Origin: Nemertoderma westbladi
Taxonomy: Eukaryota > Animalia > Xenacoelomorpha
DNA: 64,000 nucleotides
NCBI GenBank assembly: GCA_032718475.1
Contig: JAUCBJ010008112.1
Location: 1 to 64,000, forward strand
Direction of reading: 5' to 3'
Each line of letters starts with the position of its first letter. Position 1 is the first letter of the stretch. This document shows, one piece after another, positions 373 to 39,300 of the stretch. Position numbers and translations under genes: made by a program. The notes beneath the pieces are model-generated. The model saw nothing but the letters and a program-made list of their open reading frames with translations, was not told where the DNA came from and did not search any database.

Positions 373-482
373 AGCTCCGGATTGGCTCCGGGTTAATTTG
401 CCCGGAGTCGGAACCAGAGCCGGAACTAGAAAATTGGCCCGGAGCTCCGGATTTCCGGAGCCGGAGCTCTGTCGCATCCCTA
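373..482. repeat. Probable right end of a non-autonomous DNA transposon (GGAGCCGGAGC-type subterminal repeats, ending GCATCCCTA)
   Basis: Cluster of GCTCCGG/CCGGAGC motifs ending in a hAT-like terminus; the matching left end is not securely identified. Confidence 0.35.
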
Positions 483-485
483 GTG

Positions 486-4167: not shown

Positions 4168-4257
4168 GAAGTCGAAGGATTTATTGTCAGAAATGTATAA
4201 ATTATTTATATTATTTTCTTCAGAAAAACTTTATTTCTCATCATATAATTTTTCCAG

Positions 4258-18491: not shown

Positions 18492-19604
18492 AGCTGCTAT
18501 ATGAGTTTATCGATATTATAATTGATAATAATTAGGCCAGCGGTCGTTGCTGCCTCCCCCTCAGTGCCCCCGGACAGCGCAAGATCCTCAGCGCTGATGC
18601 ACTGTCGTCGCTGTGCCTCTCGCCAACGTAGTAGCTACACAACGACAACAATAACCAGCGCGAGTCACTCCACTGTCCGTCCCAAGGGCTTAGATATACT
18701 GGAGGTACTTGCTATAGAGGCAGGGTAACTTTCACAACTGCGACTCGCTACTGTAAACACACTTTAGTAGTAACATTCACCTATAAATACACAAATTCCA
18801 CATTCCTGTCACAATTTGTACAAATTCGGGCCATTTGTCCGTTAGTCAAATGCCTTCCAGAATGCCACGTTATTATTATGTATCCCTGGATACTAGCAAG
18901 GTGCTATTTATTCCGCATTCTATTCAATGGGGCAAGCTTTCTATTGTTCTTTTAACTCACTTCTAATTCTAGCGTGGTTGTTGCTATGGTGACATTATGG
19001 AAAGCTAGCGGTAGAATTAGAGTAATTCTCATGCATACAGATCTGGGATGCTATTTAATAGTGATTCTTTAATTGTCATTATTCCCTTTATACATGATTT
19101 TATGAATTTTATCGGCTATTGACTGTACACTGGAGATTCTCTCACACTAATATACTTAATAGGGTGAATCTCTGCTCCCATGATCTATTAATTAATGGAA
19201 TTTTGGGAATGTTATAAATTGTATAAAATGACAATTTATCAAATTCATGAGAGGATATGAATTTAAAATTTATTCCCGTGAATTTTATTATTTGATATTA
19301 AAATAGATACAATTTTATTCCAGAACATAGCTGGGAACTAGGATCCTTAATTCCAGAAATTTGTCTTTTAAGAGTATCGGTAAGTACTACGATACCTTAA
19401 TCGACTAGAATTTTAGAGGATCGAAATTTTTAACAGATTTTGATTTATAAATTTTCTAGAGTCAATTTGTTAGCATTTCCTCTATTTTAACATTTGTTTT
19501 AACAAACGTAATAAATATTTATTACATATTTAATATTTAAGATGGGCACCGATTTATTCCAGAACATGTCTGGGGACGTTAACCACTGATTCTAGAATTT
19601 TGTC

Positions 19605-21535
19605 TATAGAATTATATTCCCTAAATGCCGTGGATTTTCAAAATTTTATTTTATTCGGATTAACTTTTGTAAAGATTGCTTTAAGTTCTCATTCGTATTG
19701 GTTCTATCATTTGTACATCTATCGGTCAAGTGGTTCAGTAGCTCAGTTGGTAGAGCGTTGGAAATTATATGTGTAGTAGGTATCGAGTTCGAATCCTAGT
19801 AAGTGCGAATTATTTTTTGTACAGAATTTCAACTCATTTAAATTAACCGCTACAAATTAATTGCATTCGTCTGTACCAATGAGGCTGTAGTTATTTGATT
19901 GTAACCAATGTCGTGCAAGTTATATATTAGCTGGACCAATAGCTATCTTTAAAACCCCGTTAGAACCCATAGAACAATCGAGAATTTTCTCGATTGATTG
20001 CGGCACAAATTTGCTATATAAAGGTGCGATTTGTTCATTAGTTATCAATCTACACTACTTCAATATTCTCTCAGTTATTTAGTTATCTGATATTTGTTTA
20101 TTCTGTGCTTAGTTTATTCTCAGATTACATTGTATTATAATTGTATCTTCTGTAATAAAGTCAGAATATTCTCTCAGCTTTTCTATCTGTTTTACTATGG
20201 ATTCACTACGGTGAACAAACTCAGGGACAGGATGGCCGGCTAGAGATCGGGCCGCAGCAATGAACGGGAACATCACGGGAATGTAGACGAGAGACAACCC
20301 GCAATACCATCTAGAGTTATTCGCCCATCGCCTGAAAGGTTAGACAGCGTTCGATCCTTGCTACCTAAGTATAAGACCAAAAGATCAAAAGGTAGACGTA
20401 GTGACACGCTGTAAGCCCAAAATTACATCATAGGGACTGTACTGTCTTGATTCAGGAAAACCCACAGTAGACCTTCACATTCCTACGGGGGAGGGAGAGC
20501 GCAGGCAGATACTAGTACGCAGATAGGACGTAGGCACACCGGTACAAGGCATACACATTGGTTAGGGTGCAGCAAACTGTACGCTTAACTCTTGCTAAGT
20601 ACAGGTGCGCGTGCGACTATTTGCAGTACGACAGTGTCCATTGCATTAGAACTTGTAGGCTAGGGGGGTTGCTGTGTTTTCACCTGAATTGGGATTGTAC
20701 CGTTCAGGCGGTAGGGCAGTTTACGTACTAGGCGCAAATAAATTGAGGCTATCAGGGATACTAACATCTACCGTGTCCCCGCCAACGCCCTAATAGGAAG
20801 TTACCCGGACTACCTGGGTGACTAAAATTCTAGATAGGAGCCAGGATAGCTATTAGTACCTGTACGCCTACAGTAGTAAACTAACACATCTCTTCTTAGT
20901 ATCAGGGACCTGGTACCTAAAATTGCCGAATTCTGGGCGTAGTATTAACCTTATGCCTGAATTTGAGTCCTGGAAATACGCAAGAGGGGAAGGAACCTTA
21001 TCATTCGTGAGTATTGGACCTACAAGTTACAAAATTAGAATATTCGTAAATGCACACCGTACCCAGTAATTATATATGTGAAGGAGCAAAACTGTTTTGA
21101 CCGTTCAGAATTAACACACGCGCGTTAGAAATTATTTACACCTCGAAATATATAAAATTAACTTTGTCCGTACTGTGCTTTGCCCGCTAGTTAGACATCT
21201 CCAAATCTCTGCCTGTACCTAGCTAGCGTCCCTTTGCCCAACCATATAAATCACACCGCGGCAAAGTATACGAGCCCCTTAGTCCGTCAGTGAGTCAGCC
21301 TGATTTTAGGATTCGCTGTGCGGGATTTTGTTTTATCGAAGTTTGTCTGCTCGTAGACTGTTTTCTGCCTCACCGGTTATAAGAGATCAATACTGCAATA
21401 TATTCGCTTACTTAGAGTTTACTGTTTTGGTGAGAAGGTCGGATTTATGATTTGATTTACAAACTTTACAGTAAGATATTGCAGGTATTGTTACCGTCTC
21501 TTCCAATAGTAGGAATAGGCGTATCTCTTCAATTA
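19605..21535 (+). repeat. 5' LTR of element B (1931 bp, TA...TA termini)
   Basis: Direct repeat of 33759-35689 (offset 14154). Three substitutions found by eye (19788, 20504, 21319). Confidence 0.96.
19732..19818 (+). promoter_or_regulatory. tRNA-like Pol III promoter cassette within the LTR (second copy at 33886-33972)
   Basis: A box TAGCTCAGTTGG(TAGAGC), B box GAGTTCGAATCC, then a T6 run. No acceptor or anticodon stem of a functional tRNA. Confidence 0.65.
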
Positions 21536-21546
21536 GTAGGAATGTG
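21536..21546 (+). promoter_or_regulatory. Putative self-priming primer-binding site of element B
   Basis: GTAGGAATGTG abuts the LTR end and is the exact reverse complement of CACATTCCTAC at 20476-20486. No TGG-initiated tRNA PBS is present. Confidence 0.65.
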
Positions 21547-22342
21547 TTTTACTGAACTACGGTTCGGTAGGACTAAAGTTATTTGAAAATTTTGTATTTT
21601 GAGGTAAAAATTTGTATTTGATTAGCTAAGTGCTAATTTTAAAATAAAATTTGATTTGAACCGCGTGTAAAATATTTTTGGAATTGAATACCGGTGTTTA
21701 AAAGGGTTTAAATACCATATTGTACCGGTACAAAATTTTCGTAAAGTAAAACCTAACTCTTTTGTTTTTTCAGGATTCAGAACTCATTTCTAGACTGTAA
21801 CGGGAGCAAGACCGTGTTTAGCAAGTTTGGGAGATAGATAACTCAACAACTTTGGTTGGGAAAATCGCGTTTCGTCCGCAACGTTAAAAACGGAAAGGTT
21901 CACGTTCGGTTTGTATCTGGGAATCTGTTTTTCTGGAGAATTATTGGAGTGGGTGAGTTCGAAAAGTTGCATAAATAAGTTAGGCATTACCGTATTAGTT
22001 AAAATTATTGTGGGTTCCACTGTCTCAAGTATTTATGCATTCCGTATGATTTCTTTGTTCATTGCTGAATTAGTCCGTATTATTGTATTTAATTTACCTT
22101 TTGATAACGCATATCGTTATCCGATTTATTTGTTATAAAATTGGCTGCTAGGCTAATTTTATTATATACTTATTCCGTGACATTTATTTGCTGTAAAATT
22201 GGCCGTTTAGGCTAATTTTATCCATCTGCTATAAAATCGGCCGGTAGGCTAATTTTATAAGACTGTAATTAGTACCGTTTTGTATAAATACGGTAAAACT
22301 CGATACTTTGACACTCACTTTACTTGACTTACAACTACCGAA

Positions 22343-25300
22343 ATGAGTGACAAACAAGACTATACGAAAAATACACAAACCGACTATGACTCATGTGACG
22401 CGGATAAGTCAGCAGCGGAAGGACAACAGGGGAAGACTCGCGAGCCTACCGAACCTACACCGTGTGCGTCACCAGTACATCCAACGGGAGTACCGGATGC
22501 CGTAGTACGAGGCGACGGCAGGACCGAGGACTTTCTAACTGTTCCGCAACCTAGATACAGGGAAACGGACATGGTAAGTTCAGCAGGAAGCACAGAAAGT
22601 GTGGTTAGAAGCGTCGGAGGTTACATGGCGCATATAACCAGGAGTATTGGAGAAGGCCAACGCATATTAGACGGGTTGACCGCTCCGATGTCTCGATTCG
22701 AGTTCTACACCCTCCAGGTTAGAGTACAGAGTAAAGTATATAAGTCCGTAGATAATCTAGTTGGCCTACAAGATCTAGCTAGACAGAGACAGGACATGGA
22801 TACTCAACTTAGAATCCTCGAGAAACTAATGATCACTAGAGAGAAACTGATTCAGTTTAAGTCGACGATTAGACAGATACAACAGGAACAAGCGGACCAG
22901 TTGTTAGGTGAGTCAGTTTCGGACGAATTATTACAACCCGAGGAAGAACAGGAACTGTACCGACTGGATGGACAATTAAAACACCTGACGGACCACTTAC
23001 GTATGTGCGGCGAAGACGTCGGAGATTGGGAAACCGTGCCGGAATATACGAAGGAAACTTCACCCGTACGAATTGAATCGGCACCGGGAATACTGGACCA
23101 ATCGTTGGTAAGTATTCGTAGCGAAATCTGCGAGGGAAGTATAGTCACGTCAGAAGTTGCTCGACAACAGCAAGAATTCCACCGACAACGACAAGAAATG
23201 GAAGAACAAGCTCAACTTCTAGTGATGCAAGCAGCAGTAGAGGAAGAGAAGCTACGCGTTGCGAATATAGCAAGAATCTCTCATCTACAGGAACAAGCTG
23301 AATTAGAAGCAGCTGAAGTAGAAAGGTTAGAAGTAGACATTGCCCGACAAGCGGCAGCGGCAGCGGCCGAGGTAGAGCGACGAGCGGCAGCGGCCGAGTT
23401 AGAGCGACGAAACGCAGCGGCCGAGTTGGAGCGACAAACGGCAGCGGCAGAATTACAACGAGAAAGGTTAGTTTCGGAAGCGCGGGCCGAAATGAAAACA
23501 CGGCAAATAAAAGCTCAATCCGCTATACGACAAGCGGAGTTTGAGGCGCAACGACAACAAACGGAACAACGAGAGAAGACAGTGAAACTTCATTTCGAAC
23601 TCGAGAAGAAGGCGAGAGAATTAGCGAACGCCGAGGAAGATTTGGATCAAAAGGCCCGCGATAGATCGATGAGATCTCGTGACGGACATGATTTGGACCA
23701 GTTAGAGGTAAGACATCGCCAAATTCAGGAACGGAAGAAGGAAGGAAGCGTAGGAGCACCCGGACGGGAACGACAATTAGTAAAAGACGTGTGTCAACGA
23801 TTCCCACAGGTAACTCATATGTTTGCACCGGTTACGAGTAAGGAACCTGTTTCGATTGCGGGTAGTAGTGATATTTCTCCTATCCATGGTGCGACGGAAC
23901 ACAGGTTTGTTATTCCGGACGAGTTTACACCGCCAAGAGCAACGTCGTCGCCCATTCCGAAAGTCAAGGTAAGTAACCCACCGATTACGGATCGTAGTAG
24001 TTTATTGACCGGACCTGCGCTACTGACGACAAAACAGGTGAGTCCACCGTCGACACCTAAACCCGTTACACACTACGCTTACCCAATGACGTTTCGACCA
24101 ACAAGGCCTTTGGATTCAAATGCTGTCATTCGCCCACCGAACCAGTTTACATCGCAATCTACGACTTCGAGGAAGACTTGTGAGCCTACCGAACAACGGA
24201 GAACAGAGACGCGACCATTCAACCATTTTACATCGCAATCTACGACTTCGAGGAAGACTTGTGAGCCTACCGAACAACGGAGAACAGAGACGCGACCATT
24301 CAACCAGTTTACATCGCAATCTACGACTTCGAGGAAGACTTGTGAGCCTACCGAACAACGGAGATCAGTGGACGATGTTCCGAAACGAAACGTGAGAATT
24401 CGTACGACGCAACGAACGCGAGCACGTCGACCACCATATCCGGATGATAGTAGTACTTCGAGCGAATCGGATTACCCGAAACGCGAGGTATTTAGAACAG
24501 GGGCGGCCGATGAATATAAACGCGAGCGTTCAGACAACTCCTTTGCAGACAATCCTCCACAGAATACACCAACACAGAAGGCGTTACAACCAACGGACGC
24601 AATTAGTACACAACAGTTCGCCGACATCCTGCGACCAGTTGTTAACAAGTTGGCTCAGATCGAGGAACGTCTGGAGGAAGGTTACACCGACAGTTCGAGA
24701 AATTCCGAATTCGAACACAATAGACACCCGAAGGAACCACAAAGACCGGTACCTTCAAACCCCACATCGTATCAGGGAAAAGCGCCAAGAAGGGATATCA
24801 ACCAAGTTACCAACCAAGGACGCGAAACTCTGAACGTTGCCGAGGAGATAGCGAAATTCGCAGCCAGACAGGGATTGCCGGTACAACAACCACCGAAGTT
24901 CTCCGGTAGCTCAAAACACTGGCATACCTTCGTAGACTATATCGAATCCCAGATCGCCGTGTGCGCCTTTACATCACGGGAGAAGTTCAATTACTTGCTC
25001 CAAACGTTGTCAGGAGAACCTAAACGTTTGGCGGAGACTTTCGTCGGTGTACCGGACGCTTTCGAACTAGCGTACGATCGTTTAACTTCGATATACGGAG
25101 GTACAGTGAGCATGGCCAGGTCAGTAATAGAGGAACTCTGTAAGGGAGGGGCTATCACTAAACCCGTCGACTTACTAAAACTAGCTGACGAGATCAAGAA
25201 CGCTATCACTACCTTAAGATCAATTGGACAACTTGATTACGGGAATACCCCTACAGTCCTATTAAAGATAATAGGACGACTCCACCATCGACTTCGTCGG

Positions 25301-28300
25301 GAGTGGAGGAAGGTCGAATACCAGCGAGAGGAGCGGGGAGGATTCTTAAAATTAGAAGATGTGTACCTTTTAATATCCAGGGAGGCGGTAGTAGAAACTC
25401 GATCTAACTACACCGACCAGCACATCGTGGCAGAAGGAATCACACTGCCATCCTCTAACCGACAAAAACCCCAGACAACATCCACTAAGACGGCCACTTA
25501 CGCCACACCGACGGAATCACGACAATTCTCAGACGGTAATAGAGTATCTGCGCCCATTGGGACGAAACAGACGAGACAGCAACTCAGCACCGACTTCAGT
25601 GGCTGCCAATACTGCGAGCATCTAGGTAAGCGGTATATCGGTCACAAGTTACGAGGTTGTCGACAATTTCGCGAGTTGAACTCGGAAGAACGACGGCTGC
25701 AAATACGGCCACTGGACTCTTGTTGGCGGTGTACGCGACACGGACACGTCCGTAAAGACTGCCCAAATACCGACACTTGTCCATCCTGTGGACGCAATCA
25801 CGACGGTCTGCTCCACACAGACAGCCACACGCCGACGAAACGCTTCGCCAGGGAACACCCGGAAGCAGCAGCGAGATGTGATGCGGCTTACCAAAAACGA
25901 GAATCAAAAACGACTCCAACCTTCGTGACCCATATTGAGGATTGCTTCTCAGAACAATCCGGATCGTCGGATGAAGAATCAGAAGACGACGATGAATATT
26001 CCAATGGAGACGAACAACCGTCGATCGCGCTCCTGACTACTGATCAACTGAAGGGATTCAGTGTAATCCCGATTAAGGTTACTGGCACAAAGGGGAGCAA
26101 GAGGATCTATGCGATTCTAGATTCAGCCTCATCCCATAGCTACGTGGACGAAAAGATAGCTGACGTCGTGACGGATCTAAAACAAGGTAAGCACGTCAGT
26201 TATACAGTAAGTAGTATGCACGGACAGCGTGCAATACCAGTGACACGAGTCAAGTTAAACTTAGACTCTCTTCTTCCAAAATCGCAACACAGCGAGAGGG
26301 AGAGGTCTTTGTTGCCCTTTAGAGATCTAACCTTTGCGGCTACGAAGGACTTTAGTAACCTACTAGGTCCAGTACCGGAACAATCTCTAGAGGACCGTAA
26401 GTATTTCAGACACCTTGGTGTACCCGAATGTCCTGTCAATTATAGATCGGTAGCAATGCTGATCGGGACAGACCAATTCAACCTACATCAGGTGTGGGAA
26501 ACCAGACCATCGGCAGTTGTAGCGGGAAACGCATACGCCTGCAGAACGCCGATAGGGTGGTATACTCGAGCGCCTGTGCGCACACTAGACGTAAGTGACG
26601 AGGAAGACGATGTACAGAGTACATGTAGTTTATTAACTACAAATTCAATTCATTCCTTTTCACACGACGTGAACCATACTACACTACAGTCGACAAAACA
26701 CGACAGACGTGTAACTAGTATGATAAGTCACAAGGAGCAGCTAACCCACAAGGTGAGTTTAGAACTTGGGGAGAAGACGAGTCAGCTGGAGATTCCATCG
26801 ACGACAGATGATAGGCTTGCGAGTCTACCTACCCCAATAACCTCAACAGTGCCCGTCGATATCGATGATGACGCGTTGAGAAATCATCAGTTGGAACAAG
26901 CCGCCTTGGACAAAGAATTAACGGAGAAGACTATCAGGTGGTTAGAACAAGATACAGCTGAACCTGGTAGCTACGAACCTTGTATGTCGGAACAGGAGAA
27001 ACAATCTCTGAAGATCATGGAAGATACTATCCGCCAGACGAAAGACGGACATTATGAGGTAGGGATGTTATGGCGTAGCCAAAGTCCTAAACTTATAAAC
27101 AACTATCCACTGGCTTTAAGACGTCTACACTCAATACGGCAACGTCTATTGAAGGACGAGAAAGCCCATCTGCAGTATAACACTCAGATGGAGACGTATT
27201 TGACAAAGGGATACGCTATCCGAATGACTAACCCGGAGCGAGTGACCGACCAGACGTACTACTTGCCACATCACTACGTGAGACACCCCGACAAACCAGA
27301 CAAAGTACGTGTAGTCAATGACTGTGCGGCTCTGTTTGAGGGAATGTCCCTCAATAGTGAGTTGATGGATGGACCGAACATGAATAATTATCTTATGGGG
27401 GTGATTATGCGCTTCCGTCAGCGTCAAGTAGCCTTTACTTGCGACGTTGAAGCGATGTTTCACCAAGTAAAAGCGTTAGAGCGAGACAGAGACAGTTTGC
27501 GGTTCCTCTGGTATCCGGAAGGAGACTTAAGCCTACCACCAGCGACTTACCAAATGCAAGTTCGCGTTTTCGGTGCCAGAGACAGCCCAAATTGTACGAT
27601 GTACGCCCTAAAGCAAGCCGCTAGGGATCAGAAACATCTATATGACCCAGAGATAATTAGAATTGTGGAGCGTGACTTTTACGTTGATGACGGATTACAG
27701 AGTTGCGACACAGTAGAACGTGCTACAACAGTAGCACATCAATTACGGGACTGCTTGGCGGGCGGAGGTTTTAACCTCACCAAATTCGCCTCAAACAGTG
27801 CCGAATTAGTAGACTCATTCGGAACTACTGAGCGTGGAGGTGGTGACATAGACCTAGAGTTCGAACCACTACCGACGACTAAGGTGTTAGGGCTCTTTTG
27901 GGACCCAAACACAGACAACTTTCGAGTGAAGGTGAGACTGGACAGTCAAGGGAACACACTGACAAAGAGATCATGCTTGTCAAAATTGAGCCGATTGTTC
28001 GATCCGTTAGGATTCATCAGTCCAGTGATACTGCAAGCCCGCATTTATATGCGCAGTATCTGGAAGGATGGACTAACATGGGACGAGCCGATCTCATCAG
28101 ACCAAGTGGACTTATGGAAGACCTGGGAGGCGGAATTATCTTCGCTAGAGGATTATTTCATACCCAGGGTTTACTTTCCATTGCAAAGTACATTTCCTGA
28201 CAACTTGGAACTACACTGTTTTTCTGACGCCAGTGACAACGGTTTTGGTGTGGCAGCGTACTTACGCAGACAAGTAGAATCAGACGAGTTCGATGTTTCG

Positions 28301-31300
28301 CTCATTACTTCTAAGGCTAAGACCATGCCTACTAAGTATATGACGACACCACGAGCCGAGCTACAAGCCGCAACCCTGTCAACCACCATCGTGAACCTCA
28401 TACAGACAGAACTACAGTCGAGTTTACAGATATTTTATTGGACTGACGCGACGTTGGTTTTATTTTACATAAACAACGACACACTCGAATTCAAGACATT
28501 CGTTGCTAACCGTCGCGCGGAAATTCTAGACCGTTCAATAAAAGGGGATTGGCGACATTGTCCCGGACCACAAAACCCAGCTGATATTGCGTCGCGAGGA
28601 ATGATGCCTGAGGAATTCTGTAAACCGGAGAACAAAGAGTTTTGGCAACACGGACCCCAGTTCTTGCAGAAATCGACACAAGATTGGCCTCCGTTATACG
28701 ACAACAAGTCCAACACTATTCCCAAGGACGCCGAAATCAAGAAACCAAAAAAGGGGAAGACAAAGAAAAAGACGACGGCGGCGAAACTCAAGAAAAAACC
28801 GAAGGCGAAATGGAAAGATATAACTTCAAAGGTCAAGAGAGGAAGACTTGCGAGCCTTTCTACACCAGACATATCGCCAGACGGTCAACCAGACACGTTA
28901 CCAGACGGTCAACCAGACATGTTACTAGACAGCCAACCAGACATTTTGCCAGACATATCACAAAATGTTCCACCAGACGCTAGTAACACACTGACAAACA
29001 GTAAAGCCGCAGTTTCCCTATTGGAGCGGCCTTCTATTGACAAACAACCAGATACGTTACTAGACGTATCGCCAGACACATTACTAGACAGTCGACTAGA
29101 CACTAGTAATGTATTGACTAACAATAAAGCCGCAGTTTCCCTATTGGAGCGGCCTTGTATTGACAAACTACCAATTTTGACACACTTGAGCAACCATAAG
29201 CACGGTGAAACCTCATGTATTACAGATGTTAACTACACCCTAATTATGGAGAAAGGGATACAAGGAGAGCCGAGATGGGGATATGATATCCAAGAGGAGG
29301 CAGCAGCACCATTCGAAAGATTTGGAGCCAAGGATTATACTATATTCGGTATAAAAGAATTATCGGAAAGTACAGCGAAACTCGCGAGAACTAAATATGA
29401 CTCGAATGTATTAAAGAGAAGGCAAAACGCATTGAACGAAAGAATCGAAAGTTTGCGCCAAACCTTCAACGAACTTTACCCGTACGATGCTTTGTGTGAT
29501 ACGGGAGACATTAGCGAAGACCCCGATACTGAAATTAGTCGTTTGTATCATACCATGCAATACCTAAAGGCGCACGAACCTATGCCCGCGGTACGCGATG
29601 AATTCGATGGAATGCATCTTTACAGACGAACTCGAGGGGACGATAGAGAAACCAAGGAAGCATTTTCAGTTTATAAACTTTATTATCAATGCGGTTCTTG
29701 TATGCGCGAACAACGAAATGCGATTCCGATGCGTTTGAATAAGGAAAATCCCGAACCGATATTGGCGAGGTGTTCGAATCATCAACAACTACGCTACCAG
29801 GAAGGAGGGTATCCTTTATCGAATCCATATCATTCATTTGCTATGACCGGACCAAAGGCGGGAGAAACTGTCATTTACCCACCTAAGGTTGTTGAACCCG
29901 ATGTATTTGAACTTACGCTGGACGAGGCGAATCAGTCAACCCGCGAAAAGAAAGAAGCTCTTAGCCTATACAGAGCCTACAAGGCTTTCGAGAAAGGTGA
30001 GATGGAAGAATGGGGTGGAAGACTCGCGAGCCTACCTTGCCATTGGACGTCACACGATCAAACTTCAGCTAAGGAGATGACACCGGAAGTTTTCGAGAGC
30101 ATAAACTTTGCTCAAAACGTTATTCAGAGACTACAGATTGCATCCCCGGAGAGGCCAAGAGAAATGCAACCGTATAGTACTTCAACTACGAAACCATTGA
30201 GTACGACACTCAATTTCCCTATTAGTATACCAGTCCGACAGGATACGACGTACGAAATACCCATCGTGGATCATCCAGAAATCATTTCAAACTTGGAGTT
30301 TCTTCCTGCAGTTGTTTTCAGCGATATGAGTAAGATATATGATTTACGTAGACATATTACTCAAAAGGTCGTGCACAACGTTCCACCTCATATTCAAGAT
30401 TTCAAGGAACTGGATAGAGCTGGTGCCGACATAGCTCCGAGTAATCTGAAAGGATATCTAACCAAGACGATTCGTTTATGGATTGGAACCGGAACCTTCG
30501 AGTCGGATACAGATATTGCCGCAGATTGGCGAGGTAAGGTTATTCGTTTCGATGAGGATAAGGATATAGAGAAGATTTGGCAACCTTCGGAAGAATTGTT
30601 GGATGAATGGACTAGGACGTTTAGATCGTTTCAGGAAAACGGTTATATGTTTTACGATAACGAGGGCGGCAGTCATCAGCAGAGTTTGACTTCTAAGACT
30701 ATACAGATTAGAGCGGCGGACGGAGTCCTGCACGTTTTCAGTAGACAGAGGAGCGACAAACGAATGCCGATACCTCCAGCGAATACAAAGCGACACCATC
30801 TTATCACCGATATAGTAAAGAAGATGGACCAAGCTTGTAATATTGACGCTAGAATGCTACCGAAGATGGTAAGAAACATGATTTTAGATAAAACTGTTGT
30901 AAAGGTTGGATCAGGAGTAAGGGAGGATTTAATTAGCGACTTCGCCGGCATGACGGACAGCGATGACCGACTACCGACACCATACGTCGACACTCGACCT
31001 CTTATTCTGTGGTCTATAGAACAGGGATATTTTCGTGAGTATAATACTCAGAAGACTGGAACTGGATACATTTCCTACCTGTTATTCAATTGGGATTATA
31101 AGGAAGGTAAAAGAAACAAGTATATTGAAACTTATGGAGAAGGTGATACTCCAGATATGAGTGAGTTTGAATCACAGCTTAAATGGAGAGGATGCGTGTA
31201 TTGGGCTATTACGTCACCTCCAAGAGCGGTCTTACAATATTATTTAGCAATAGAGTCGTCAGTGAATGTTTGCCTAATCGCCGACATCGTGTCTCGGACT

Positions 31301-31381
31301 CTCAAAAGACATCCACTTTGTCTCGGAGAAGATCATACGTTCTACATGGAAGGGAGAATTCGTACCGACGTGTTTAGATGA
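22343..31381 (+). CDS. Element B polyprotein: Gag (capsid-like domain + 3 Cys/His knuckles) - aspartic protease - RT - RNase H - linker - Zn finger - DEDDy exonuclease
   Basis: 3012-aa ORF. Motifs: PKFSGSSKHW (Pao gag), CWRC..GHVRKDC, ILDSASS (~26120), FYVDDG (~27680), HCFSDAS and NPADIASRG (RNase H), FYDNEGG (30656). No HHCC/DDE integrase motifs seen. Confidence 0.93.
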   Translation: MSDKQDYTKNTQTDYDSCDADKSAAEGQQGKTREPTEPTPCASPVHPTGVPDAVVRGDGRTEDFLTVPQPRYRETDMVSSAGSTESVVRSVGGYMAHITRSIGEGQRILDGLTAPMSRFEFYTLQVRVQSKVYKSVDNLVGLQDLARQRQDMDTQLRILEKLMITREKLIQFKSTIRQIQQEQADQLLGESVSDELLQPEEEQELYRLDGQLKHLTDHLRMCGEDVGDWETVPEYTKETSPVRIESAPGILDQSLVSIRSEICEGSIVTSEVARQQQEFHRQRQEMEEQAQLLVMQAAVEEEKLRVANIARISHLQEQAELEAAEVERLEVDIARQAAAAAAEVERRAAAAELERRNAAAELERQTAAAELQRERLVSEARAEMKTRQIKAQSAIRQAEFEAQRQQTEQREKTVKLHFELEKKARELANAEEDLDQKARDRSMRSRDGHDLDQLEVRHRQIQERKKEGSVGAPGRERQLVKDVCQRFPQVTHMFAPVTSKEPVSIAGSSDISPIHGATEHRFVIPDEFTPPRATSSPIPKVKVSNPPITDRSSLLTGPALLTTKQVSPPSTPKPVTHYAYPMTFRPTRPLDSNAVIRPPNQFTSQSTTSRKTCEPTEQRRTETRPFNHFTSQSTTSRKTCEPTEQRRTETRPFNQFTSQSTTSRKTCEPTEQRRSVDDVPKRNVRIRTTQRTRARRPPYPDDSSTSSESDYPKREVFRTGAADEYKRERSDNSFADNPPQNTPTQKALQPTDAISTQQFADILRPVVNKLAQIEERLEEGYTDSSRNSEFEHNRHPKEPQRPVPSNPTSYQGKAPRRDINQVTNQGRETLNVAEEIAKFAARQGLPVQQPPKFSGSSKHWHTFVDYIESQIAVCAFTSREKFNYLLQTLSGEPKRLAETFVGVPDAFELAYDRLTSIYGGTVSMARSVIEELCKGGAITKPVDLLKLADEIKNAITTLRSIGQLDYGNTPTVLLKIIGRLHHRLRREWRKVEYQREERGGFLKLEDVYLLISREAVVETRSNYTDQHIVAEGITLPSSNRQKPQTTSTKTATYATPTESRQFSDGNRVSAPIGTKQTRQQLSTDFSGCQYCEHLGKRYIGHKLRGCRQFRELNSEERRLQIRPLDSCWRCTRHGHVRKDCPNTDTCPSCGRNHDGLLHTDSHTPTKRFAREHPEAAARCDAAYQKRESKTTPTFVTHIEDCFSEQSGSSDEESEDDDEYSNGDEQPSIALLTTDQLKGFSVIPIKVTGTKGSKRIYAILDSASSHSYVDEKIADVVTDLKQGKHVSYTVSSMHGQRAIPVTRVKLNLDSLLPKSQHSERERSLLPFRDLTFAATKDFSNLLGPVPEQSLEDRKYFRHLGVPECPVNYRSVAMLIGTDQFNLHQVWETRPSAVVAGNAYACRTPIGWYTRAPVRTLDVSDEEDDVQSTCSLLTTNSIHSFSHDVNHTTLQSTKHDRRVTSMISHKEQLTHKVSLELGEKTSQLEIPSTTDDRLASLPTPITSTVPVDIDDDALRNHQLEQAALDKELTEKTIRWLEQDTAEPGSYEPCMSEQEKQSLKIMEDTIRQTKDGHYEVGMLWRSQSPKLINNYPLALRRLHSIRQRLLKDEKAHLQYNTQMETYLTKGYAIRMTNPERVTDQTYYLPHHYVRHPDKPDKVRVVNDCAALFEGMSLNSELMDGPNMNNYLMGVIMRFRQRQVAFTCDVEAMFHQVKALERDRDSLRFLWYPEGDLSLPPATYQMQVRVFGARDSPNCTMYALKQAARDQKHLYDPEIIRIVERDFYVDDGLQSCDTVERATTVAHQLRDCLAGGGFNLTKFASNSAELVDSFGTTERGGGDIDLEFEPLPTTKVLGLFWDPNTDNFRVKVRLDSQGNTLTKRSCLSKLSRLFDPLGFISPVILQARIYMRSIWKDGLTWDEPISSDQVDLWKTWEAELSSLEDYFIPRVYFPLQSTFPDNLELHCFSDASDNGFGVAAYLRRQVESDEFDVSLITSKAKTMPTKYMTTPRAELQAATLSTTIVNLIQTELQSSLQIFYWTDATLVLFYINNDTLEFKTFVANRRAEILDRSIKGDWRHCPGPQNPADIASRGMMPEEFCKPENKEFWQHGPQFLQKSTQDWPPLYDNKSNTIPKDAEIKKPKKGKTKKKTTAAKLKKKPKAKWKDITSKVKRGRLASLSTPDISPDGQPDTLPDGQPDMLLDSQPDILPDISQNVPPDASNTLTNSKAAVSLLERPSIDKQPDTLLDVSPDTLLDSRLDTSNVLTNNKAAVSLLERPCIDKLPILTHLSNHKHGETSCITDVNYTLIMEKGIQGEPRWGYDIQEEAAAPFERFGAKDYTIFGIKELSESTAKLARTKYDSNVLKRRQNALNERIESLRQTFNELYPYDALCDTGDISEDPDTEISRLYHTMQYLKAHEPMPAVRDEFDGMHLYRRTRGDDRETKEAFSVYKLYYQCGSCMREQRNAIPMRLNKENPEPILARCSNHQQLRYQEGGYPLSNPYHSFAMTGPKAGETVIYPPKVVEPDVFELTLDEANQSTREKKEALSLYRAYKAFEKGEMEEWGGRLASLPCHWTSHDQTSAKEMTPEVFESINFAQNVIQRLQIASPERPREMQPYSTSTTKPLSTTLNFPISIPVRQDTTYEIPIVDHPEIISNLEFLPAVVFSDMSKIYDLRRHITQKVVHNVPPHIQDFKELDRAGADIAPSNLKGYLTKTIRLWIGTGTFESDTDIAADWRGKVIRFDEDKDIEKIWQPSEELLDEWTRTFRSFQENGYMFYDNEGGSHQQSLTSKTIQIRAADGVLHVFSRQRSDKRMPIPPANTKRHHLITDIVKKMDQACNIDARMLPKMVRNMILDKTVVKVGSGVREDLISDFAGMTDSDDRLPTPYVDTRPLILWSIEQGYFREYNTQKTGTGYISYLLFNWDYKEGKRNKYIETYGEGDTPDMSEFESQLKWRGCVYWAITSPPRAVLQYYLAIESSVNVCLIADIVSRTLKRHPLCLGEDHTFYMEGRIRTDVFR
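24139..24362 (+). repeat. 81-bp in-frame tandem repeat (about 3 units) in gag
   Basis: NQFTSQSTTSRKTCEPTEQRRTETRPF repeated with period 81 (24171, 24252, 24333). Confidence 0.9.
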
Positions 31382-32971
31382 TTCCTTGAACCCTTCTACA
31401 ACTCTGACGCTCAGTGTAATGCCTTTACTCGAGCAGGATTTAGTATATTTCGAGACGTGTATCTTCGCTGTGCGGGATCTCTTATCGAAAGACCATCTAT
31501 GTTTACATTGTTACCCTATGAAGGAGAACGTATCGTGGAGATTACGGAAGAATCACGGCAGACGCGCGCGCCTATCGGTCACCTTGGTGATGAATTCGAA
31601 GTAACTACTACGATCGCCGACGATCCTTTAGAGGAACTTCTTGAGATAGAAAGGAACCTCCCGAAGAAATCTCAGACGGAGATTCGACAACTTGAAGCAA
31701 CAGATGCTATAGTTTGTATACAACCTTCAGAAACCTACCAACCCATAGACCCAGATGATTATGATTATAGTATGGGAGGAAGCGCTCGACCGATTGGAGA
31801 TCTTATATACGAACGAGTGTGGTACCCTGCCAATACGATGTGTAGTAAATGTGGCGTCGCTGGACATCATATGGCAAAGTGCAGTGGAAAGCACATTACT
31901 ACGACTCAGCTAATCTGTGGATGGTGTGGGGATCAAGGGTCTCATACCTTTTATACTTGCTGGAGATTTATGGCTCAATGTACTTACTGCAATATAAAGG
32001 GACATCGAGCATCTGAATGCCAACTGAGAGACATACCTTATGAACACGAATCTGTAAAACTCGTGAGGAAGTTATTTGATGAGTGGGAAGATTTAGCCGA
32101 CGAACATGTATCGGCACAGAGAAGACGGTTTCCGATGAGAGCGCATCTCGGATTTTGGGCGGTAAATCCCCAGACGATGATGTCGGAAGGATATATCTCC
32201 GCTATGCCCCAATACGACGAACTTATCGAGGTTGTCGATATTTTGCCCCACGACAGCGGATTCCGAGTGGTGCGCGAGTATCTGTTACAAATTCACCCGG
32301 ATAACAAAAACACGTGGAATTTTCAGAAAGTCGTTAATCGGATTACGTATGGTGAATTCGATCGTTTCCGAACTGAAAAACGGAATAAAGGAGCTTGGTT
32401 AACCGTCGCATGGGCGTACCGAGCCGCGTTTTACCACAAACGTATACGAGCGAGCGTATTCGAGGAAGAGGAGGTCCTAGAGGCGACAAATATATCAGCC
32501 ACTCCGGTTGCGCCGTCTGCACGTCACCCTCGGGAGGACGGGCAGGGTAGGATCATACGGGTCCAGAAGGTGGGCCAACAATTAAAGAAAATTATTAATG
32601 TAGAAGAACGCAAGGGAGTTGAGCCGACTATTCGAGTTACTCGGGATACGGTATCACTTCCAAGAGAACCAGTAGGAGGATCGGGACATACACCAGCTGA
32701 TCAACAGGGGGCGCAAGCTACTCTTGGGTCTGCGTCGTCCACTTCTCGCGCGTTCCCAGACGTTCTACCAACTGTAGTGACAACTGATCGGTCACGAGGA
32801 ATCGGTCGAGGTTTTGGGATGCTAAATAAACGAATTTGCGAGGAAATAGTCGCACCATCTCTCAACGTCCCAAGTAAACCAGTGACTCGCCCCACAAGTC
32901 CCATATCGCGAGCAAAGTCACCTGTGCGCAGTTTTCGAGGACGCGGCAGGGCTCGATCCACTAAGCGATAA
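31382..32971 (+). CDS. In-frame continuation of the element B polyprotein past a single TGA: three CCHC fingers + basic tail
   Basis: Same frame as 22343. DVFR*FLEPF...AGFSIFRDV aligns with ECFRRFLTLF...AGFAIFKDV of element A ORF2. Fingers: CSKC..H..C, CGWC..H..C, CTYC..H..C. Confidence 0.85.
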   Translation, partial: FLEPFYNSDAQCNAFTRAGFSIFRDVYLRCAGSLIERPSMFTLLPYEGERIVEITEESRQTRAPIGHLGDEFEVTTTIADDPLEELLEIERNLPKKSQTEIRQLEATDAIVCIQPSETYQPIDPDDYDYSMGGSARPIGDLIYERVWYPANTMCSKCGVAGHHMAKCSGKHITTTQLICGWCGDQGSHTFYTCWRFMAQCTYCNIKGHRASECQLRDIPYEHESVKLVRKLFDEWEDLADEHVSAQRRRFPMRAHLGFWAVNPQTMMSEGYISAMPQYDELIEVVDILPHDSGFRVVREYLLQIHPDNKNTWNFQKVVNRITYGEFDRFRTEKRNKGAWLTVAWAYRAAFYHKRIRASVFEEEEVLEATNISATPVAPSARHPREDGQGRIIRVQKVGQQLKKIINVEERKGVEPTIRVTRDTVSLPREPVGGSGHTPADQQGAQATLGSASSTSRAFPDVLPTVVTTDRSRGIGRGFGMLNKRICEEIVAPSLNVPSKPVTRPTSPISRAKSPVRSFRGRGRARSTKR

Positions 32972-33057
32972 AAGGGAGGGCAAGGGTGGACGGAAGACTC
33001 GTGGGCCTTTCTTATGATTTTGTGATTTATTTGAATTTATATTTATATTTGTGTTTA

Positions 33058-33270
33058 TTCCGAACTTATGCAATTTATATTATTCCGAACTTATGCAATT
33101 TGTATTGTTCCGAATTTATGAAATTTAGAAATAAGAACTTATATTTAGTAAAACTTATATTTAGTAAGAATTTATATTTTATATTTACGTGATTATTTCG
33201 AACCTATGCAATTTATATTATTCCGAACTTATGCAATTTATATTGTTCCGAATATTATGCAATTTATATT
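33058..33270 (+). repeat. AT-rich ~25-bp degenerate repeats in the 3' UTR of element B
   Basis: Recurrent TTCCGAACTTATGCAATTTATATT. Confidence 0.7.
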
Positions 33271-33758
33271 TTATAAGCAGTATTTGTATTTACAGTGAAA
33301 TAGAAAGTTTTATAGATAGAAAATTTTGTGCTCAGAAAGACTCATATTTGTAATTATTCCAAACTTATGCAATCTACATTTAGGTAAGAAAGTATTTGTA
33401 ATTACTTGAATTTATGCAATATTTGGGATGCAATAGTAGATGGAAGACTCGCGAGCCTTTCTTATTGTTTTCATTTATTTGTATTTGTAATTGTTTGAAT
33501 TTATGCAATATCTGAGATGCAATAGATTTATATTGGTGAATTTAATTTAGATTTATATTGTACTTACTTAGTAAAGCCTTAAATACGTAAAGTTTGAATT
33601 TGTAATTATTTTTGTATCGAATCATTACGTAGAAAGGAAGTATTGTTTGAAATTTAATTGTAAATATGTAAGTACGCCCTAAGTATTCTATAGTTTAATT
33701 GATTATTGGTGAAAACCGTATATTTTATGCACGATAATATCCTGTTTTCATGGAGCGG

Positions 33759-35689
33759 TATAGAATTATATTCCCTAAATGCCGTGGATTTTCAAAATTT
33801 TATTTTATTCGGATTAACTTTTGTAAAGATTGCTTTAAGTTCTCATTCGTATTGGTTCTATCATTTGTACATCTATCGGTCAAGTGGTTCAGTAGCTCAG
33901 TTGGTAGAGCGTTGGAAATTATATGTGTAGTAGGTATCGAGATCGAATCCTAGTAAGTGCGAATTATTTTTTGTACAGAATTTCAACTCATTTAAATTAA
34001 CCGCTACAAATTAATTGCATTCGTCTGTACCAATGAGGCTGTAGTTATTTGATTGTAACCAATGTCGTGCAAGTTATATATTAGCTGGACCAATAGCTAT
34101 CTTTAAAACCCCGTTAGAACCCATAGAACAATCGAGAATTTTCTCGATTGATTGCGGCACAAATTTGCTATATAAAGGTGCGATTTGTTCATTAGTTATC
34201 AATCTACACTACTTCAATATTCTCTCAGTTATTTAGTTATCTGATATTTGTTTATTCTGTGCTTAGTTTATTCTCAGATTACATTGTATTATAATTGTAT
34301 CTTCTGTAATAAAGTCAGAATATTCTCTCAGCTTTTCTATCTGTTTTACTATGGATTCACTACGGTGAACAAACTCAGGGACAGGATGGCCGGCTAGAGA
34401 TCGGGCCGCAGCAATGAACGGGAACATCACGGGAATGTAGACGAGAGACAACCCGCAATACCATCTAGAGTTATTCGCCCATCGCCTGAAAGGTTAGACA
34501 GCGTTCGATCCTTGCTACCTAAGTATAAGACCAAAAGATCAAAAGGTAGACGTAGTGACACGCTGTAAGCCCAAAATTACATCATAGGGACTGTACTGTC
34601 TTGATTCAGGAAAACCCACAGTAGACCTTCACATTCCTACGGGGGAGGGAGAGCGCAAGCAGATACTAGTACGCAGATAGGACGTAGGCACACCGGTACA
34701 AGGCATACACATTGGTTAGGGTGCAGCAAACTGTACGCTTAACTCTTGCTAAGTACAGGTGCGCGTGCGACTATTTGCAGTACGACAGTGTCCATTGCAT
34801 TAGAACTTGTAGGCTAGGGGGGTTGCTGTGTTTTCACCTGAATTGGGATTGTACCGTTCAGGCGGTAGGGCAGTTTACGTACTAGGCGCAAATAAATTGA
34901 GGCTATCAGGGATACTAACATCTACCGTGTCCCCGCCAACGCCCTAATAGGAAGTTACCCGGACTACCTGGGTGACTAAAATTCTAGATAGGAGCCAGGA
35001 TAGCTATTAGTACCTGTACGCCTACAGTAGTAAACTAACACATCTCTTCTTAGTATCAGGGACCTGGTACCTAAAATTGCCGAATTCTGGGCGTAGTATT
35101 AACCTTATGCCTGAATTTGAGTCCTGGAAATACGCAAGAGGGGAAGGAACCTTATCATTCGTGAGTATTGGACCTACAAGTTACAAAATTAGAATATTCG
35201 TAAATGCACACCGTACCCAGTAATTATATATGTGAAGGAGCAAAACTGTTTTGACCGTTCAGAATTAACACACGCGCGTTAGAAATTATTTACACCTCGA
35301 AATATATAAAATTAACTTTGTCCGTACTGTGCTTTGCCCGCTAGTTAGACATCTCCAAATCTCTGCCTGTACCTAGCTAGCGTCCCTTTGCCCAACCATA
35401 TAAATCACACCGCGGCAAAGTATACGAGCCCCTTAGTCCGTCAGTGAGTCAGCCTGATTTTAGGATTCGCTGCGCGGGATTTTGTTTTATCGAAGTTTGT
35501 CTGCTCGTAGACTGTTTTCTGCCTCACCGGTTATAAGAGATCAATACTGCAATATATTCGCTTACTTAGAGTTTACTGTTTTGGTGAGAAGGTCGGATTT
35601 ATGATTTGATTTACAAACTTTACAGTAAGATATTGCAGGTATTGTTACCGTCTCTTCCAATAGTAGGAATAGGCGTATCTCTTCAATTA
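33759..35689 (+). repeat. 3' LTR of element B
   Basis: Direct repeat of 19605-21535; preceded by purine-rich GGAGCGG and followed by TTGTC. Confidence 0.96.
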
Positions 35690-36333
35690 TTGTCTTTCAA
35701 GTATATCGGTGGGTGCCGTGATATCTTAATCGACAAGAATTTCAGATGGTCAAAGGGTTCAACAGATTTATTTAATAGATTTCATTAATACTATTAATAT
35801 TTGTTAATATTTTGAGCTTCAATACTACTGTTAAATGGACATCATTCTACTATATGTATTATTTAATATACGGTATGAGAGCAATATTGCAAGAAGCAAT
35901 GTCAGTGAGAAGAGGCAAGTCGTTTCCAAGGTCTACCCAGAGCTTGGTATAGCCGAGACACGAGGATCTGAACTTTGCATTCCTAATACTCCACTTACCA
36001 ATAATACTTGAGTATAGTAGGGGCGGTATATTGTACTTTTAATAAGTATGGACATTTCATCTTACTGTAGTCACGTATTTATAGTATGATACGGACAGTA
36101 AGGAAAGAGAAAATGAATTATTTCTCGCCGTTAAACGAAATATATTATACTAAGTAATTAAGTAATAAAACACGAATATATTGCACTAATCTACTGAATA
36201 ATCTCTAAAATATTATTCTACTAAATAAAACTAAAGAAAACGATTATATAATAAAATTACATAATAATACATACATAAATATAAAAATAAAAATAAATAA
36301 AATAATGCAGTCACACACCCACTCCTAACACTG

Positions 36334-39300
36334 TTACGTTGGGGAGTCCCTAGATGTTTGTTGGATTAGGGAGGTGGTCGTGGGAAGAGTCTCTTGCCTT
36401 CCATAGTTACCAGACAACTCTCGGTCTCTTTCCAGTAAACATAAACGACCAACTGGGCGATTAAGTTGTTGTGTTTCGAATACAATTCCAGGTTTCTTAA
36501 AGTTACGTCGCATGACGATGAGTTCTATCGATCGCACTAAACCATCATCGGATATATGAGTCTCGATGATACGACCTGTCTGCCACCTCTTACGTGGAAG
36601 ATCTGATTCCACGATAAGAACCATGTCTCCGGCGCTGACGTTTTCTTGCTGCGCAAACCACTTTGTTCGAAGTTGTAGCTTAGGAAGATAATGTTTTTCG
36701 AAATGGTCAGCGAAACAACAGGATAATAACTGCATAAGTTGCCAAGTTTGTCGGCAGTATTCATCTCCGTCCGTGATTTCCGATTGCGGGAGCATGGCTA
36801 CAGGTTTCTTTAGTAGGAAATGCGCTGGTGTTAGCGCTTCTAGGGAGTCGGGACTCGATGAGACTGGCATAAGCGGTCTCTCGTTAAGATAGGCGGCGAT
36901 TTCTTCCATTAACGTCCGCAAAAGTTCGTCGGTGAGATACGCGCGGCACGGCACTATAAAGTGAAATGCGGTCTTCACGCTTCGTATTAGTCTCTCCCAA
37001 CTTCCTCCCCACCAAGGGGCGTTGGCGGCGTTGAAGGTCCAGCTAGATGCTGTTACCCTTAGCTGATCGTCCACCTGTCTTTGGTTCCAATCTTTCACGT
37101 AAGCTTTGATCTCATTATTGGCGCCAATGAAGTTTGTTCCTTTGTCGGATCTTATAGTGTTGCTAGTTCCAAAACGAGCGATCTGTCGGCGTAAACTCAG
37201 TATGAAGCTGTTGGTAGATAGATTGTTCACCATATCTAGATGAATCGCTCTACAAGTCATACAGACAAAGATGACACACCATCGCTTGACTATAGTCCTA
37301 GCACGATATACTTCAATAGGGCCAAATAAATCCACACCAGTATTAGTAAAGGGTGGTTCATAGAAGCTTACTCGTTCCCTAGGTAATTCTGCCTCGCGCT
37401 GTGTTAAAGGCCTACTAAATGCTTTCCTGCAGGGTATACAGTTCCTAAGAACTTGGTTTAGAGCTCTACAGGGCTTATGGAAATAATAGCGAGTTCGAAT
37501 TTCGCTAAGAACTCGTTCTCTACCAGCATGGTAAAGTCTACTGTGAACATCTACAATCATCTTGATTTGTATTTCAAGATTTCTAATGAGTATGGGAAAC
37601 TTAGTGTCAAAGGACAATGGAGCATTAGTTAATCTCCCTCCGACACGTATTAATACATCTATCATTGTGCTAGAGAAACGATCCCTTAAGCGCATCTGTG
37701 GATTTCTCAACAACAGGAAATACTTATCGGAATCTTCATAGCATTGCAGGGGTCTCAGTATCTGCTTATTGGTATCATCATGTTCTTGGTAACTGATCTT
37801 CTCAGTCAGAAACCTATCAGACACTCTGTAAACGGGAAGGTCTTTAATAGCATGGACCTTTTCAGATACTATTGGAGCAGTATCACTAGCGATCTTCGTC
37901 CTGGAATAGTGATGATGGAAACATCTTTTCAGGTACACAACGGCCTTGCAAAGCCGATTCCAGGAGCTATAATGATCTATTGCTCTTTGTAGGAGAGGGG
38001 AGACGTCTGGTGTTCCAGATTTCCAGTCTCTTTCCCTGATCTCTATAACGGATTTATTCGTATTTCTCGTAACATCCGTGGGTATGTTTAGATCTATGGC
38101 GTCGTCACCAGAGGCGTGTAGTACAGACAGATCTATCACGGGTTTAAATAACTTTGATTTACTCGTCCGGGTTTTAGGTTTGACTTTCTCCGCTCCCTTG
38201 GCTTGTCTAATCTCTGCGGTAGTGAGATGAGGGAGCCATTCCTCCTCTTCTTTACTCAGGAAGTCGGGTCCACCTAACCAGTCTGAAGTATCTATCAACT
38301 CTTGAGGAGTTGCTCCTCTGGAAGCGAGGTCAGCTGGATTAATCGTCCCAGGGCAATGTCTCCATTGATCCGTATTAGAGCGACTAAGTGTAATGGCTAC
38401 TCTTTTGGTAATGAAGACGCTGAACTGACAGACTTCATTTGTTATATACTCCAGAACGAGTAAAGCATCAGTCCAATAGACAGTTTTCTCAAGTGGATAG
38501 TCGATCTGTTCTGTTACATTCCGGCCGATGGCTGTAGCGTATAGATCCGCCTTTAACTCCGCTCTAGGAACTCGTAGTTTGTTGTTTATTAGGGCCTTAG
38601 AGGCGACCAATGCAACCTTAATTCCATCCGGAGTTTCAACCCTCAGGTAGGCTACTATACCTATTCCCAAATCGCTGGCGTCTCCAAACACATGGAGTTG
38701 ATAGGCATATGTGGGGAGAACGTGACCAAAATATGAACGGGAAATCTTAAAGTTCTCGATGGATGGTAGATAATCTTCCCATTTCATCCACTTCTTTAGC
38801 AGTTCTCCCTTAAGTGGATCATCCCACGAGTGTTTTTCGAGCCACATTTGTTGTACTAAGCTCCGAGCAACTAATATGACTGGGCTAATATATCCCAATG
38901 GATCGAAATAAGTGCTCAGGATACTTAAACAAATCCATTTAGTTCTAACTGGATTATCTCGTTGTTTTAACTGAAAGAATAGAATGTCTCTCTCCGTGTC
39001 CCATTTTAATCCAAGAGTCTTGGTTTCTGGAAGATCGTCCTTAATGAGGTCCAGGTCTTTTAACACTTCGGTCTTCTACTGGTATCAATTCCCGGAACTC
39101 ACGGGAGGTACTAGTGAATTTGGTTAGGCGAAATCCACCTCGTCGTAAGCACTCAACCGTTCCATTATCAACATTTATCGCTTCTTCCACCGATGGAAGG
39201 GACTTTAAATTGTCATCCATGTAAATATCCCGTTTGATGTTGTCGATAACCGCTTTAGAGAAGGCATCTCGATTGTCATCGGCAGTGGTACGCAGTACCG

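Follow-up and report, generated by a model that had tools for sequence, protein, structure and literature searches.

The window analysed here, a stretch of 64,000 nt from a Nemertoderma westbladi contig (JAUCBJ010008112.1, positions 1 to 64,000), contains a young BEL/Pao-type LTR retrotransposon of 16,085 nt that we refer to as Element B. Its two long terminal repeats (LTRs), of 1,931 nt each, are identical except for 3 positions. The features that delimit the element and its open reading frames (ORFs) are listed below.

19600..19604, forward strand: left copy of the target-site duplication (TSD), TTGTC, 5 bp
19605..21535, forward strand: 5' LTR, 1,931 nt, starting with TATAG and ending with CAATTA
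22343..31381, forward strand: ORF1, with a gag DUF1759 domain, a zinc knuckle, RT-RNase H (Peptidase_A17) and ~870 aa without a known family; ends in TGA
31382..32971, forward strand: ORF2, 529 codons, in frame straight past the TGA of ORF1; CCHC knuckles, the rest without a known family
33752..33758, forward strand: short polypurine-like tract GGAGCGG, abutting the 3' LTR
33759..35689, forward strand: 3' LTR, holding a second copy of the 11-mer described below at 34630-34640
35690..35694, forward strand: right copy of the TSD, TTGTC, 5 bp

The original prediction had taken the LTR end from LTR-LTR identity together with the TSD. Repeat alignment confirmed this end, and empty-site contigs from public reads of the same organism, with loose ends at 19600 and 19605, confirmed the outer boundary. 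The LTR termini are TA..TA, and not the TG..CA expected of BEL/Pao. The family is very abundant, with thousands of contigs of 80-100% likeness in three DNA runs from one organism. Further BEL/Pao copies are present within the window.

Coding capacity and classification

Pfam searches of ORF1 identified the BEL/Pao gag domain DUF1759 (E = 4.5e-11) and the RT-RNase H covered by the Peptidase_A17 model (E = 2.4e-41). Only BEL/Pao models were matched; the Ty3/gypsy reverse transcriptase and chromodomain integrase that mark the Tf1/sushi group were not among them. Furthermore, the best 120 of 980 relatives (E up to 1e-3) were BEL/Pao polyproteins with 36-44% identity, most of them carrying integrase domains. 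Judged by its sequence, Element B is a BEL/Pao-derived LTR retrotransposon.

No integrase model matched any of the Element B protein pieces at E values up to 1. The C-terminal 867 aa of ORF1 gave one low-complexity match among 1.84 billion representatives and none in a second search, and Pfam and NCBIfam returned nothing significant for this orphan region. Its best profile was DnaQ epsilon (E = 0.062; 12.9 bits against a cut-off of 245), and the Atlas yielded leads only (0.85-0.86), one of which was a 3'-5' exonuclease cluster. AlphaFold2 run without an alignment produced no usable fold (mean pLDDT 29.6). Element B appears, from these searches, to have swapped its integrase for an uncharacterised protein.

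Complementarity between the LTR and the predicted primer-binding site

The 11 nt that follow the 5' LTR pair with a segment inside it, and the two sites are as follows.

20476..20486, forward strand: predicted self-primer CACATTCCTAC, the exact complement of GTAGGAATGTG; 3'-LTR copy at 34630-34640
21536..21546, forward strand: predicted primer-binding site (PBS) GTAGGAATGTG, at offset 0 from the 5' LTR end

We confirmed that the complementarity is perfect over 11 nt and that, as had been claimed, pairing ends on both sides, with T opposite T at one and G opposite A at the other. A published working criterion for self-primers asks for 10 bp or more of complementarity to the LTR, starting 0-5 bp past the 5' LTR (PMC6317226); in Element B the complement is 11/11 at offset 0. 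The paired sites are separated by 1,049 nt, compared with ~100-230 nt in the relatives described below. A search for CACATTCCTAC found it at 20476-20486 (+) and 34630-34640 (+), its complement at 21536-21546, and one site with a single mismatch at 31892. These four sites compare with 1.06 expected, and four were reached in 0 of 100 shuffles. We also considered that the match might have come from an inverted duplication, and rejected this because the similarity ends at the 11 nt.

How often such a match would arise by chance was estimated in several ways. In order-1 Markov shuffles of the LTR, a complement of at least 11 nt was found at offset 0 in 3 of 4000 cases (~1e-3) and at offsets 0-5 in 18 of 4000 (4.5e-3). 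Mock 11-mers had an LTR complement at 52 of 46,980 positions in the rest of the window and at 10 of 12,194 in the element interior. The 792-nt leader holds three further LTR complements of at least 11 nt, at 21640, 22057 and 22095, and because of these the local chance rate may be ~4e-3 per position.

Predicted folding gave different answers for different RNA ends. With a 5' end at 20476, 10 of the 11 pairs form with a predicted probability of 0.93-1.0 and the first with 0.23-0.25; with a 5' end at 20045, the probability is 0. The support that folding lends to the 11-nt pairing therefore depends on the assumed 5' end. In addition, summed contig depth rose 4-5 fold over 20462-20491 in two runs, which is weakly suggestive of a primer segment kept among subfamilies. 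A further run, presumed to be RNA, gave no coverage of 20368-20581.

A sequence scan found no TGG between 21436 and 21640, that is, within 100 nt of the site, which excludes a binding site for the 3' end of a tRNA (...CCA) there. The tRNA-Arg or tRNA-Gly PBS named in the ICTV profile accordingly has no TGG-type counterpart in Element B. ARAGORN detected no tRNA gene within the window and no tRNA in the 40 of 80 relative loci that were scanned; a lowered threshold gave noise only.

Contiguous and splice-junction complements in relatives

From an alignment of the Element B RT-RNase H with 17 matches we obtained 80 metagenome BEL/Pao loci (numbered with the prefix L) with 34-46% identity; viral contigs scanned with the Element B RT region yielded 0 loci. 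Canonical relatives in which the LTR end could be fixed share one arrangement, in which the LTR (TGT..ACA) ends in ACA and is followed by 2-5 nt and a short conserved block. Seven families carry GTTCGAATTTG or GTTCGAAAATG as this block. The PBS of Element B lies in the same place and has 8 of 11 bases in common with the commonest relative PBS, GTTCGAATTTG. The tract GGAGCGG also resembles the GGGGCCGG-type tracts of the relatives, and the TSD of one of them, L036, is likewise 5 bp.

No contiguous complement of the conserved block was found in the LTRs of the seven families, even with up to two mismatches allowed. A conserved host RNA that primes on the GTTCGAATTTG block was first considered and was dropped once splice junctions had been found. 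Five of the seven families have, within the LTR, a donor (GTAAG or GTGAG) and, 77-366 nt from it, a pyrimidine-rich AG acceptor; once joined, the exon ends complement the block past the LTR exactly. The family with the variant block has a correspondingly variant exon end. The junction scan found no junction for the families L002-L005 and L061/L062.

We then applied a strict scan to all 80 loci, which required a GTRAG donor and a pyrimidine-rich AG acceptor separated by an intron of 40-600 nt and, 0-5 nt past ACA, a site complementary to the junction over at least 11 nt; the reverse strand served as control. Seventeen loci matched on the element strand and two on the control strand; when the ACA rule was left out, the counts were 25 and 8. 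One of the 17, L011, sits within an ORF and is probably a false match. The remaining junction loci belong to ~12 families. Among these there are 10 distinct PBS sequences, 11-15 nt long, and every one of them complements the junction of its own LTR. In L016 the pairing was recognised via the 3' LTR, and in L043 donor and acceptor are present in both LTR copies. The primer of most relatives, as read from their LTRs, would exist only once the LTR intron has been spliced out.

Contiguous pairing was found in two further families, L039 and L058, whose LTR-PBS complements are 10 and 12 nt long and differ by one matched double change. That their LTRs are homologous is our reading, since they align poorly. 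Compensatory changes that keep the pairing were seen among the relatives, both in this double change and in the 10 PBS sequences that each fit their own LTR.

Element B itself has a contiguous complement, and no GT..AG split recreating its primer was found at offsets 0-5 and lengths 9-14. Scanning the whole window for junctions returned scattered matches, none of them 0-5 nt past ACA, and a search for the exact junction pattern in metagenome contigs gave 0 matches. The contiguous primer of Element B possibly arose by intron loss through a spliced template.

A quick tree of 38 rows was built, with 38 of the 80 loci omitted because they had no stop-free match of at least 480 residues. Near-duplicates (L003, L004, L005, L008, L012, L032, L077, L038, L062, L065 and L026) were removed where the match was usable. 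Element B, whose branch is long (1.81), pairs with L042 (support 90), and the group around them (support 82) also contains the junction-primed L017. Support for its neighbours is only moderate, and we do not lean on this placement.

Predicted position of the primer in the transcript

The LTR contains a predicted promoter and two candidate polyadenylation signals.

20015..20022, forward strand: TATA box TATATAAA, predicted classical promoter, with initiator-like YYANWYY motifs at 20045-20061
20154..20159, forward strand: first AATAAA, downstream of the predicted start and upstream of the 11-mer
20737..20742, forward strand: second AATAAA, a predicted polyadenylation signal 251 nt past the 11-mer; its use would put the primer inside R

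The original prediction had placed the transcription start at 20476/20477, so that the 11-mer would form the 5' end of the RNA as in Tf1. The initiator-like YYANWYY at 20475 on which this drew is real, but it is one of 18 in the LTR. An AATAAA does lie downstream of the 11-mer, as had been stated (20737), but another lies upstream of it (20154). The caveat that the TATA box near 20016 is not ~30 nt upstream of the 11-mer proved correct; TATATAAA lies ~430 nt upstream. We found no support for a start at 20476/20477, given the TATA box and initiator at 20015-20055 and the predicted internal position of the primer in L043. We consider it doubtful that the primer consists of the 5'-terminal 11 nt of the RNA. 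The Element B primer is probably inside R, ~430 nt from a predicted start at ~20047.

L043 provides a comparison for this layout. Its paired site would lie ~105 nt downstream of the TATA-predicted start and inside R, with a polyadenylation signal after it. The corresponding parts are given below, with L043 positions counted in its LTR.

TATA-like box: L043, about 181-190; Element B, 20015-20022
Intron donor: L043, 322/323; Element B, none
Acceptor or contiguous primer: L043, acceptor at 471/472; Element B, 11-mer at 20476-20486
AATAAA: L043, about 568; Element B, 20737
LTR end: L043, 694; Element B, 21535
PBS: L043, 3 nt past the LTR end; Element B, immediately past the LTR end

The order of parts is the same in both elements: TATA, primer, AATAAA, LTR end and PBS. 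Polyadenylation of the 3' LTR from the upstream AATAAA (20154) would place the primer in U5, and strand transfer would then fail. Under the proposed model this signal would have to be bypassed or spliced out.

Discussion

It is likely that Element B primes minus-strand DNA synthesis from its own LTR RNA and not from a tRNA. This core idea of the original prediction is supported by the lack of a TGG near the site, by the complement of published length and position, and by the relatives, which maintain the pairing with 10 different sequences. We regard the comparison of relatives as the decisive evidence at the level of sequence, and many BEL/Pao relatives appear to self-prime as well.

In the mechanism that we propose, a fold in the genomic RNA would bring the 11-mer into pairing with the PBS. 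Cleavage past 20486 by a nuclease, for which we assume the RNase H of the element by analogy, would leave the priming 3'-OH at this position, the 3' end of the 11-mer. Reverse transcriptase would then use U5 as template as far as the cut. The stretch from 20487 to ~20760, which would be R provided that the AATAAA at 20737 is the signal used, would thereby be copied, and this copy would be transferred to the 3' R, where synthesis would continue. A trimmed 3'-LTR copy as primer, which had been offered as an alternative source, is not needed. Plus-strand strong-stop DNA would copy the primer and so re-template the PBS in each cycle, which would keep the pairing perfect. The LTR appears to be untrimmed and to run up to the PBS; because of this, the last base common to both LTRs is the base that adjoins the duplex, as priming from 20486 predicts.

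Alternatively, priming might use an RNA of the host, for example the 5' half of a tRNA, as with the half tRNA of copia, or some other small RNA that ends in CACAUUCCUAC, with the copy in the LTR being a coincidence. BEL/Pao elements are described as tRNA-primed in the ICTV profile (PMC8742986), half-tRNA primers are known in Ty1/copia lineages (PMC6317226), and the 11-mer may be read as an anticodon-loop-like string. However, this reading requires a coincidence of ~1e-3 to 4e-3, and Rfam finds no known RNA family in 19000-36500 at E values up to 1. Furthermore, the 10 different PBS sequences of the relatives, each fitting its own LTR, would be inexplicable by one shared host RNA. We consider a host-RNA primer very improbable.

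The pairing might also be a long-range RNA structure, for instance one that switches packaging, translation or dimerisation, while another primer is used. Pairing is kept among the relatives, and conservation alone does not demonstrate priming; the leader also holds other LTR complements. Set against this, the duplex in Element B starts exactly where minus-strand DNA must start, at offset 0, the pairing of the relatives is found at the expected place of a PBS, 0-5 nt past ACA, and no other candidate primer site is available, as TGG is lacking. A purely structural role is in our judgement very improbable. Least probable of all is a functionless chance match, for which the LTR length of 1,931 nt, the very many elements screened (among which matches with a rate of 1e-3 will arise) and the seemingly raised complement rate in the leader might speak, and against which stand the exact register, the length equal to that of the relatives' PBS, the 8 of 11 bases shared with the commonest of these, the clade-wide rule of self-complementarity and the absence of an alternative PBS.

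Among the nearest known systems is Tf1, which self-primes from its LTR transcript. There the primer-PBS duplex is 11 nt, the primer is freed by RNase H cleavage, and the paired sites are much closer than 1,049 nt. Element B resembles the Tf1 group in that its PBS pairs with its own LTR transcript, and its predicted duplex is also of 11 nt. It differs in belonging to BEL/Pao, as judged by Pfam and its best relatives, whereas the Tf1 group belongs to Ty3/gypsy; in a primer that is probably internal to R, whereas Tf1 uses the first bases of its mRNA; and in paired sites 1,049 nt apart, with RNase H cleavage assumed by analogy. In Tf1 and Tf2 of Schizosaccharomyces pombe and Tj1 of S. japonicus, the PBS adjoining U5 complements the LTR transcript of the element itself; such priming is established for Tf1, and for Tj1 and the Tf1/sushi group it has been proposed (PMC4600332). 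It has also been predicted for the plant lineages Tcn1 (Ty3/gypsy) and TAR (Ty1/copia) (Neumann et al. 2019, PMC6317226). These share with Element B the LTR complement of the working criterion and are, likewise, predictions only; they are plant elements of other superfamilies.

According to the ICTV profile, the LTRs of BEL/Pao elements measure 0.2-1.2 kb and their genomes 4.2-10 kb, and the elements have a PBS for tRNA-Arg or tRNA-Gly and an integrase (PMC8742986). Element B is like canonical BEL/Pao in its DUF1759 domain, its RT-RNase H of the Peptidase_A17 model and its 5-bp TSD. It is unlike them in its 1.93-kb LTRs, its size of 16.1 kb, its TA..TA ends, and the lack of a tRNA site and of a detectable integrase; because LTR length, genome size, PBS and integrase all differ, it departs from each of the four ICTV traits. 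Element B resembles the junction-primed BEL/Pao relatives in where its PBS lies and how long this is, in the order of parts and in 8 of 11 bases of their commonest PBS, whereas its primer is contiguous and its LTR is not trimmed to ..ACA. The contiguous primer, the 1,049-nt span, the untrimmed ends and the lack of a detectable integrase are thus the oddities of Element B itself.

We tentatively propose a history for these oddities, which we think rather unlikely to hold. Element B may be an integrase-less offshoot of self-priming BEL/Pao elements in which a splice-junction primer has become contiguous and intron-free. Its untrimmed cDNA (TA..TA, 5-bp TSD) would be inserted by an orphan module made of the last ~870 aa of ORF1 and, through readthrough of the TGA, the 529-codon ORF2. 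A DnaQ-like 3'-5' exonuclease may form part of this module and trim the RNA back to the end of the primer. If this offshoot reading is true, it would amount to a new mode of priming and integrating for an LTR retrotransposon.

In the limited collection of literature searched, we found no report of BEL/Pao self-priming or of splice-junction primers, and searching it for literal sequences turned up unrelated primers only. The terms PBS, "primer binding" and tRNA do not occur in the main survey of BEL/Pao (PMC3118150). If the self-priming reading is true, a third superfamily primes with its own RNA, and does so widely, and the frequent splice-junction primers would tie host splicing to retroelement replication. 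The seemingly untrimmed LTR of Element B would allow the start of DNA synthesis to be read directly from the genome, and the element has reached a very high copy number even though its integrase has seemingly been replaced by an uncharacterised protein.

Putative splice-junction primer sites in metagenome relatives and leader complements

The metagenome BEL/Pao loci L007, L012, L016, L017, L018, L019, L023, L024, L027, L036, L043, L047 and L056 carry a predicted intron of 77-366 nt within the LTR. The donor of these introns is GTAAG or GTGAG and the acceptor is a pyrimidine-rich AG. In each of these loci, a primer-binding site (PBS) of 11-15 nt is the exact complement of the spliced LTR junction. 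One of the two matches in the reverse-strand control scan is a 16-nt junction complement that follows ACA on the reverse strand of L019. Instead of arising by chance, this match may belong to a genuine element that runs the other way.

In Element B, the 16,085-nt BEL/Pao-type retrotransposon, the leader contains three complements to the LTR besides the PBS, each 11-13 nt long, with about 0.8 expected:

21640-21652, leader site; LTR partner at 19641
22057-22067, leader site; LTR partner at 20255
22095-22105, leader site; LTR partner at 20384

LTR ends and LTR composition of Element B

The LTRs of Element B terminate in TA..TA rather than TG..CA (19605-19609, 21530-21535 and 33752-33763), and they include the four nucleotides ATTA, which in relatives form the spacer between ..CA and the PBS. 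This suggests that Element B cDNA is inserted without end trimming. The target-site duplication is nonetheless 5 bp. Inspection by eye showed a partial duplicate of the LTR-end/PBS junction some 25 nt upstream of it (21506-21546), with TAGTAGGAAT present at both 21508-21517 and 21533-21542.

The LTR itself is composite, being AT-rich until about 20200 and then having 43-55% GC for about 1.1 kb. Comparison with sequencing run X4 showed that the summed depth over the first ~440 nt (19619-20046) was 20-30 times that of the rest of the LTR, and this segment seems to be common to more abundant repeats. In one X4 contig (701 nt, 93 differences), A-to-G changes were densely clustered at 21076-21193, making it an editing-like, hypermutated copy. 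We also noted by eye a tRNA-like stretch in U3 (19737-19818), in which motifs resembling an A box and a B box precede a T run; neither ARAGORN nor Rfam called it at normal thresholds.

Coding region downstream of RNase H

No integrase was found in Element B, including the region 28450-32971. Downstream of RNase H, ORF1 has a C-terminal extension of ~870 aa, for which a homologue search among 1.84 billion representatives returned one low-complexity match and a second search returned none. Weak hints of a DnaQ-like 3'-5' exonuclease were detected in this orphan region (Atlas score 0.85; NCBIfam E 0.062). ORF1 ends as follows:

31379-31381, ORF1 stop codon TGA

Because ORF2 (529 codons, with CCHC knuckles) follows this TGA directly and in frame, read-through from ORF1 into ORF2 is possible.

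Other repeats in the window

A second BEL/Pao family and a 63-nt satellite are also present:

36334-43756, minus strand, complete copy of the second family, integrase domains present
61477-63999, plus strand, partial copy of the second family, leaving the window after gag
410-4190 and 45501-46215, 63-nt satellite arrays

No 5' LTR was found for either second-family copy. The gag of both copies shares only 23-25% identity with that of Element B.
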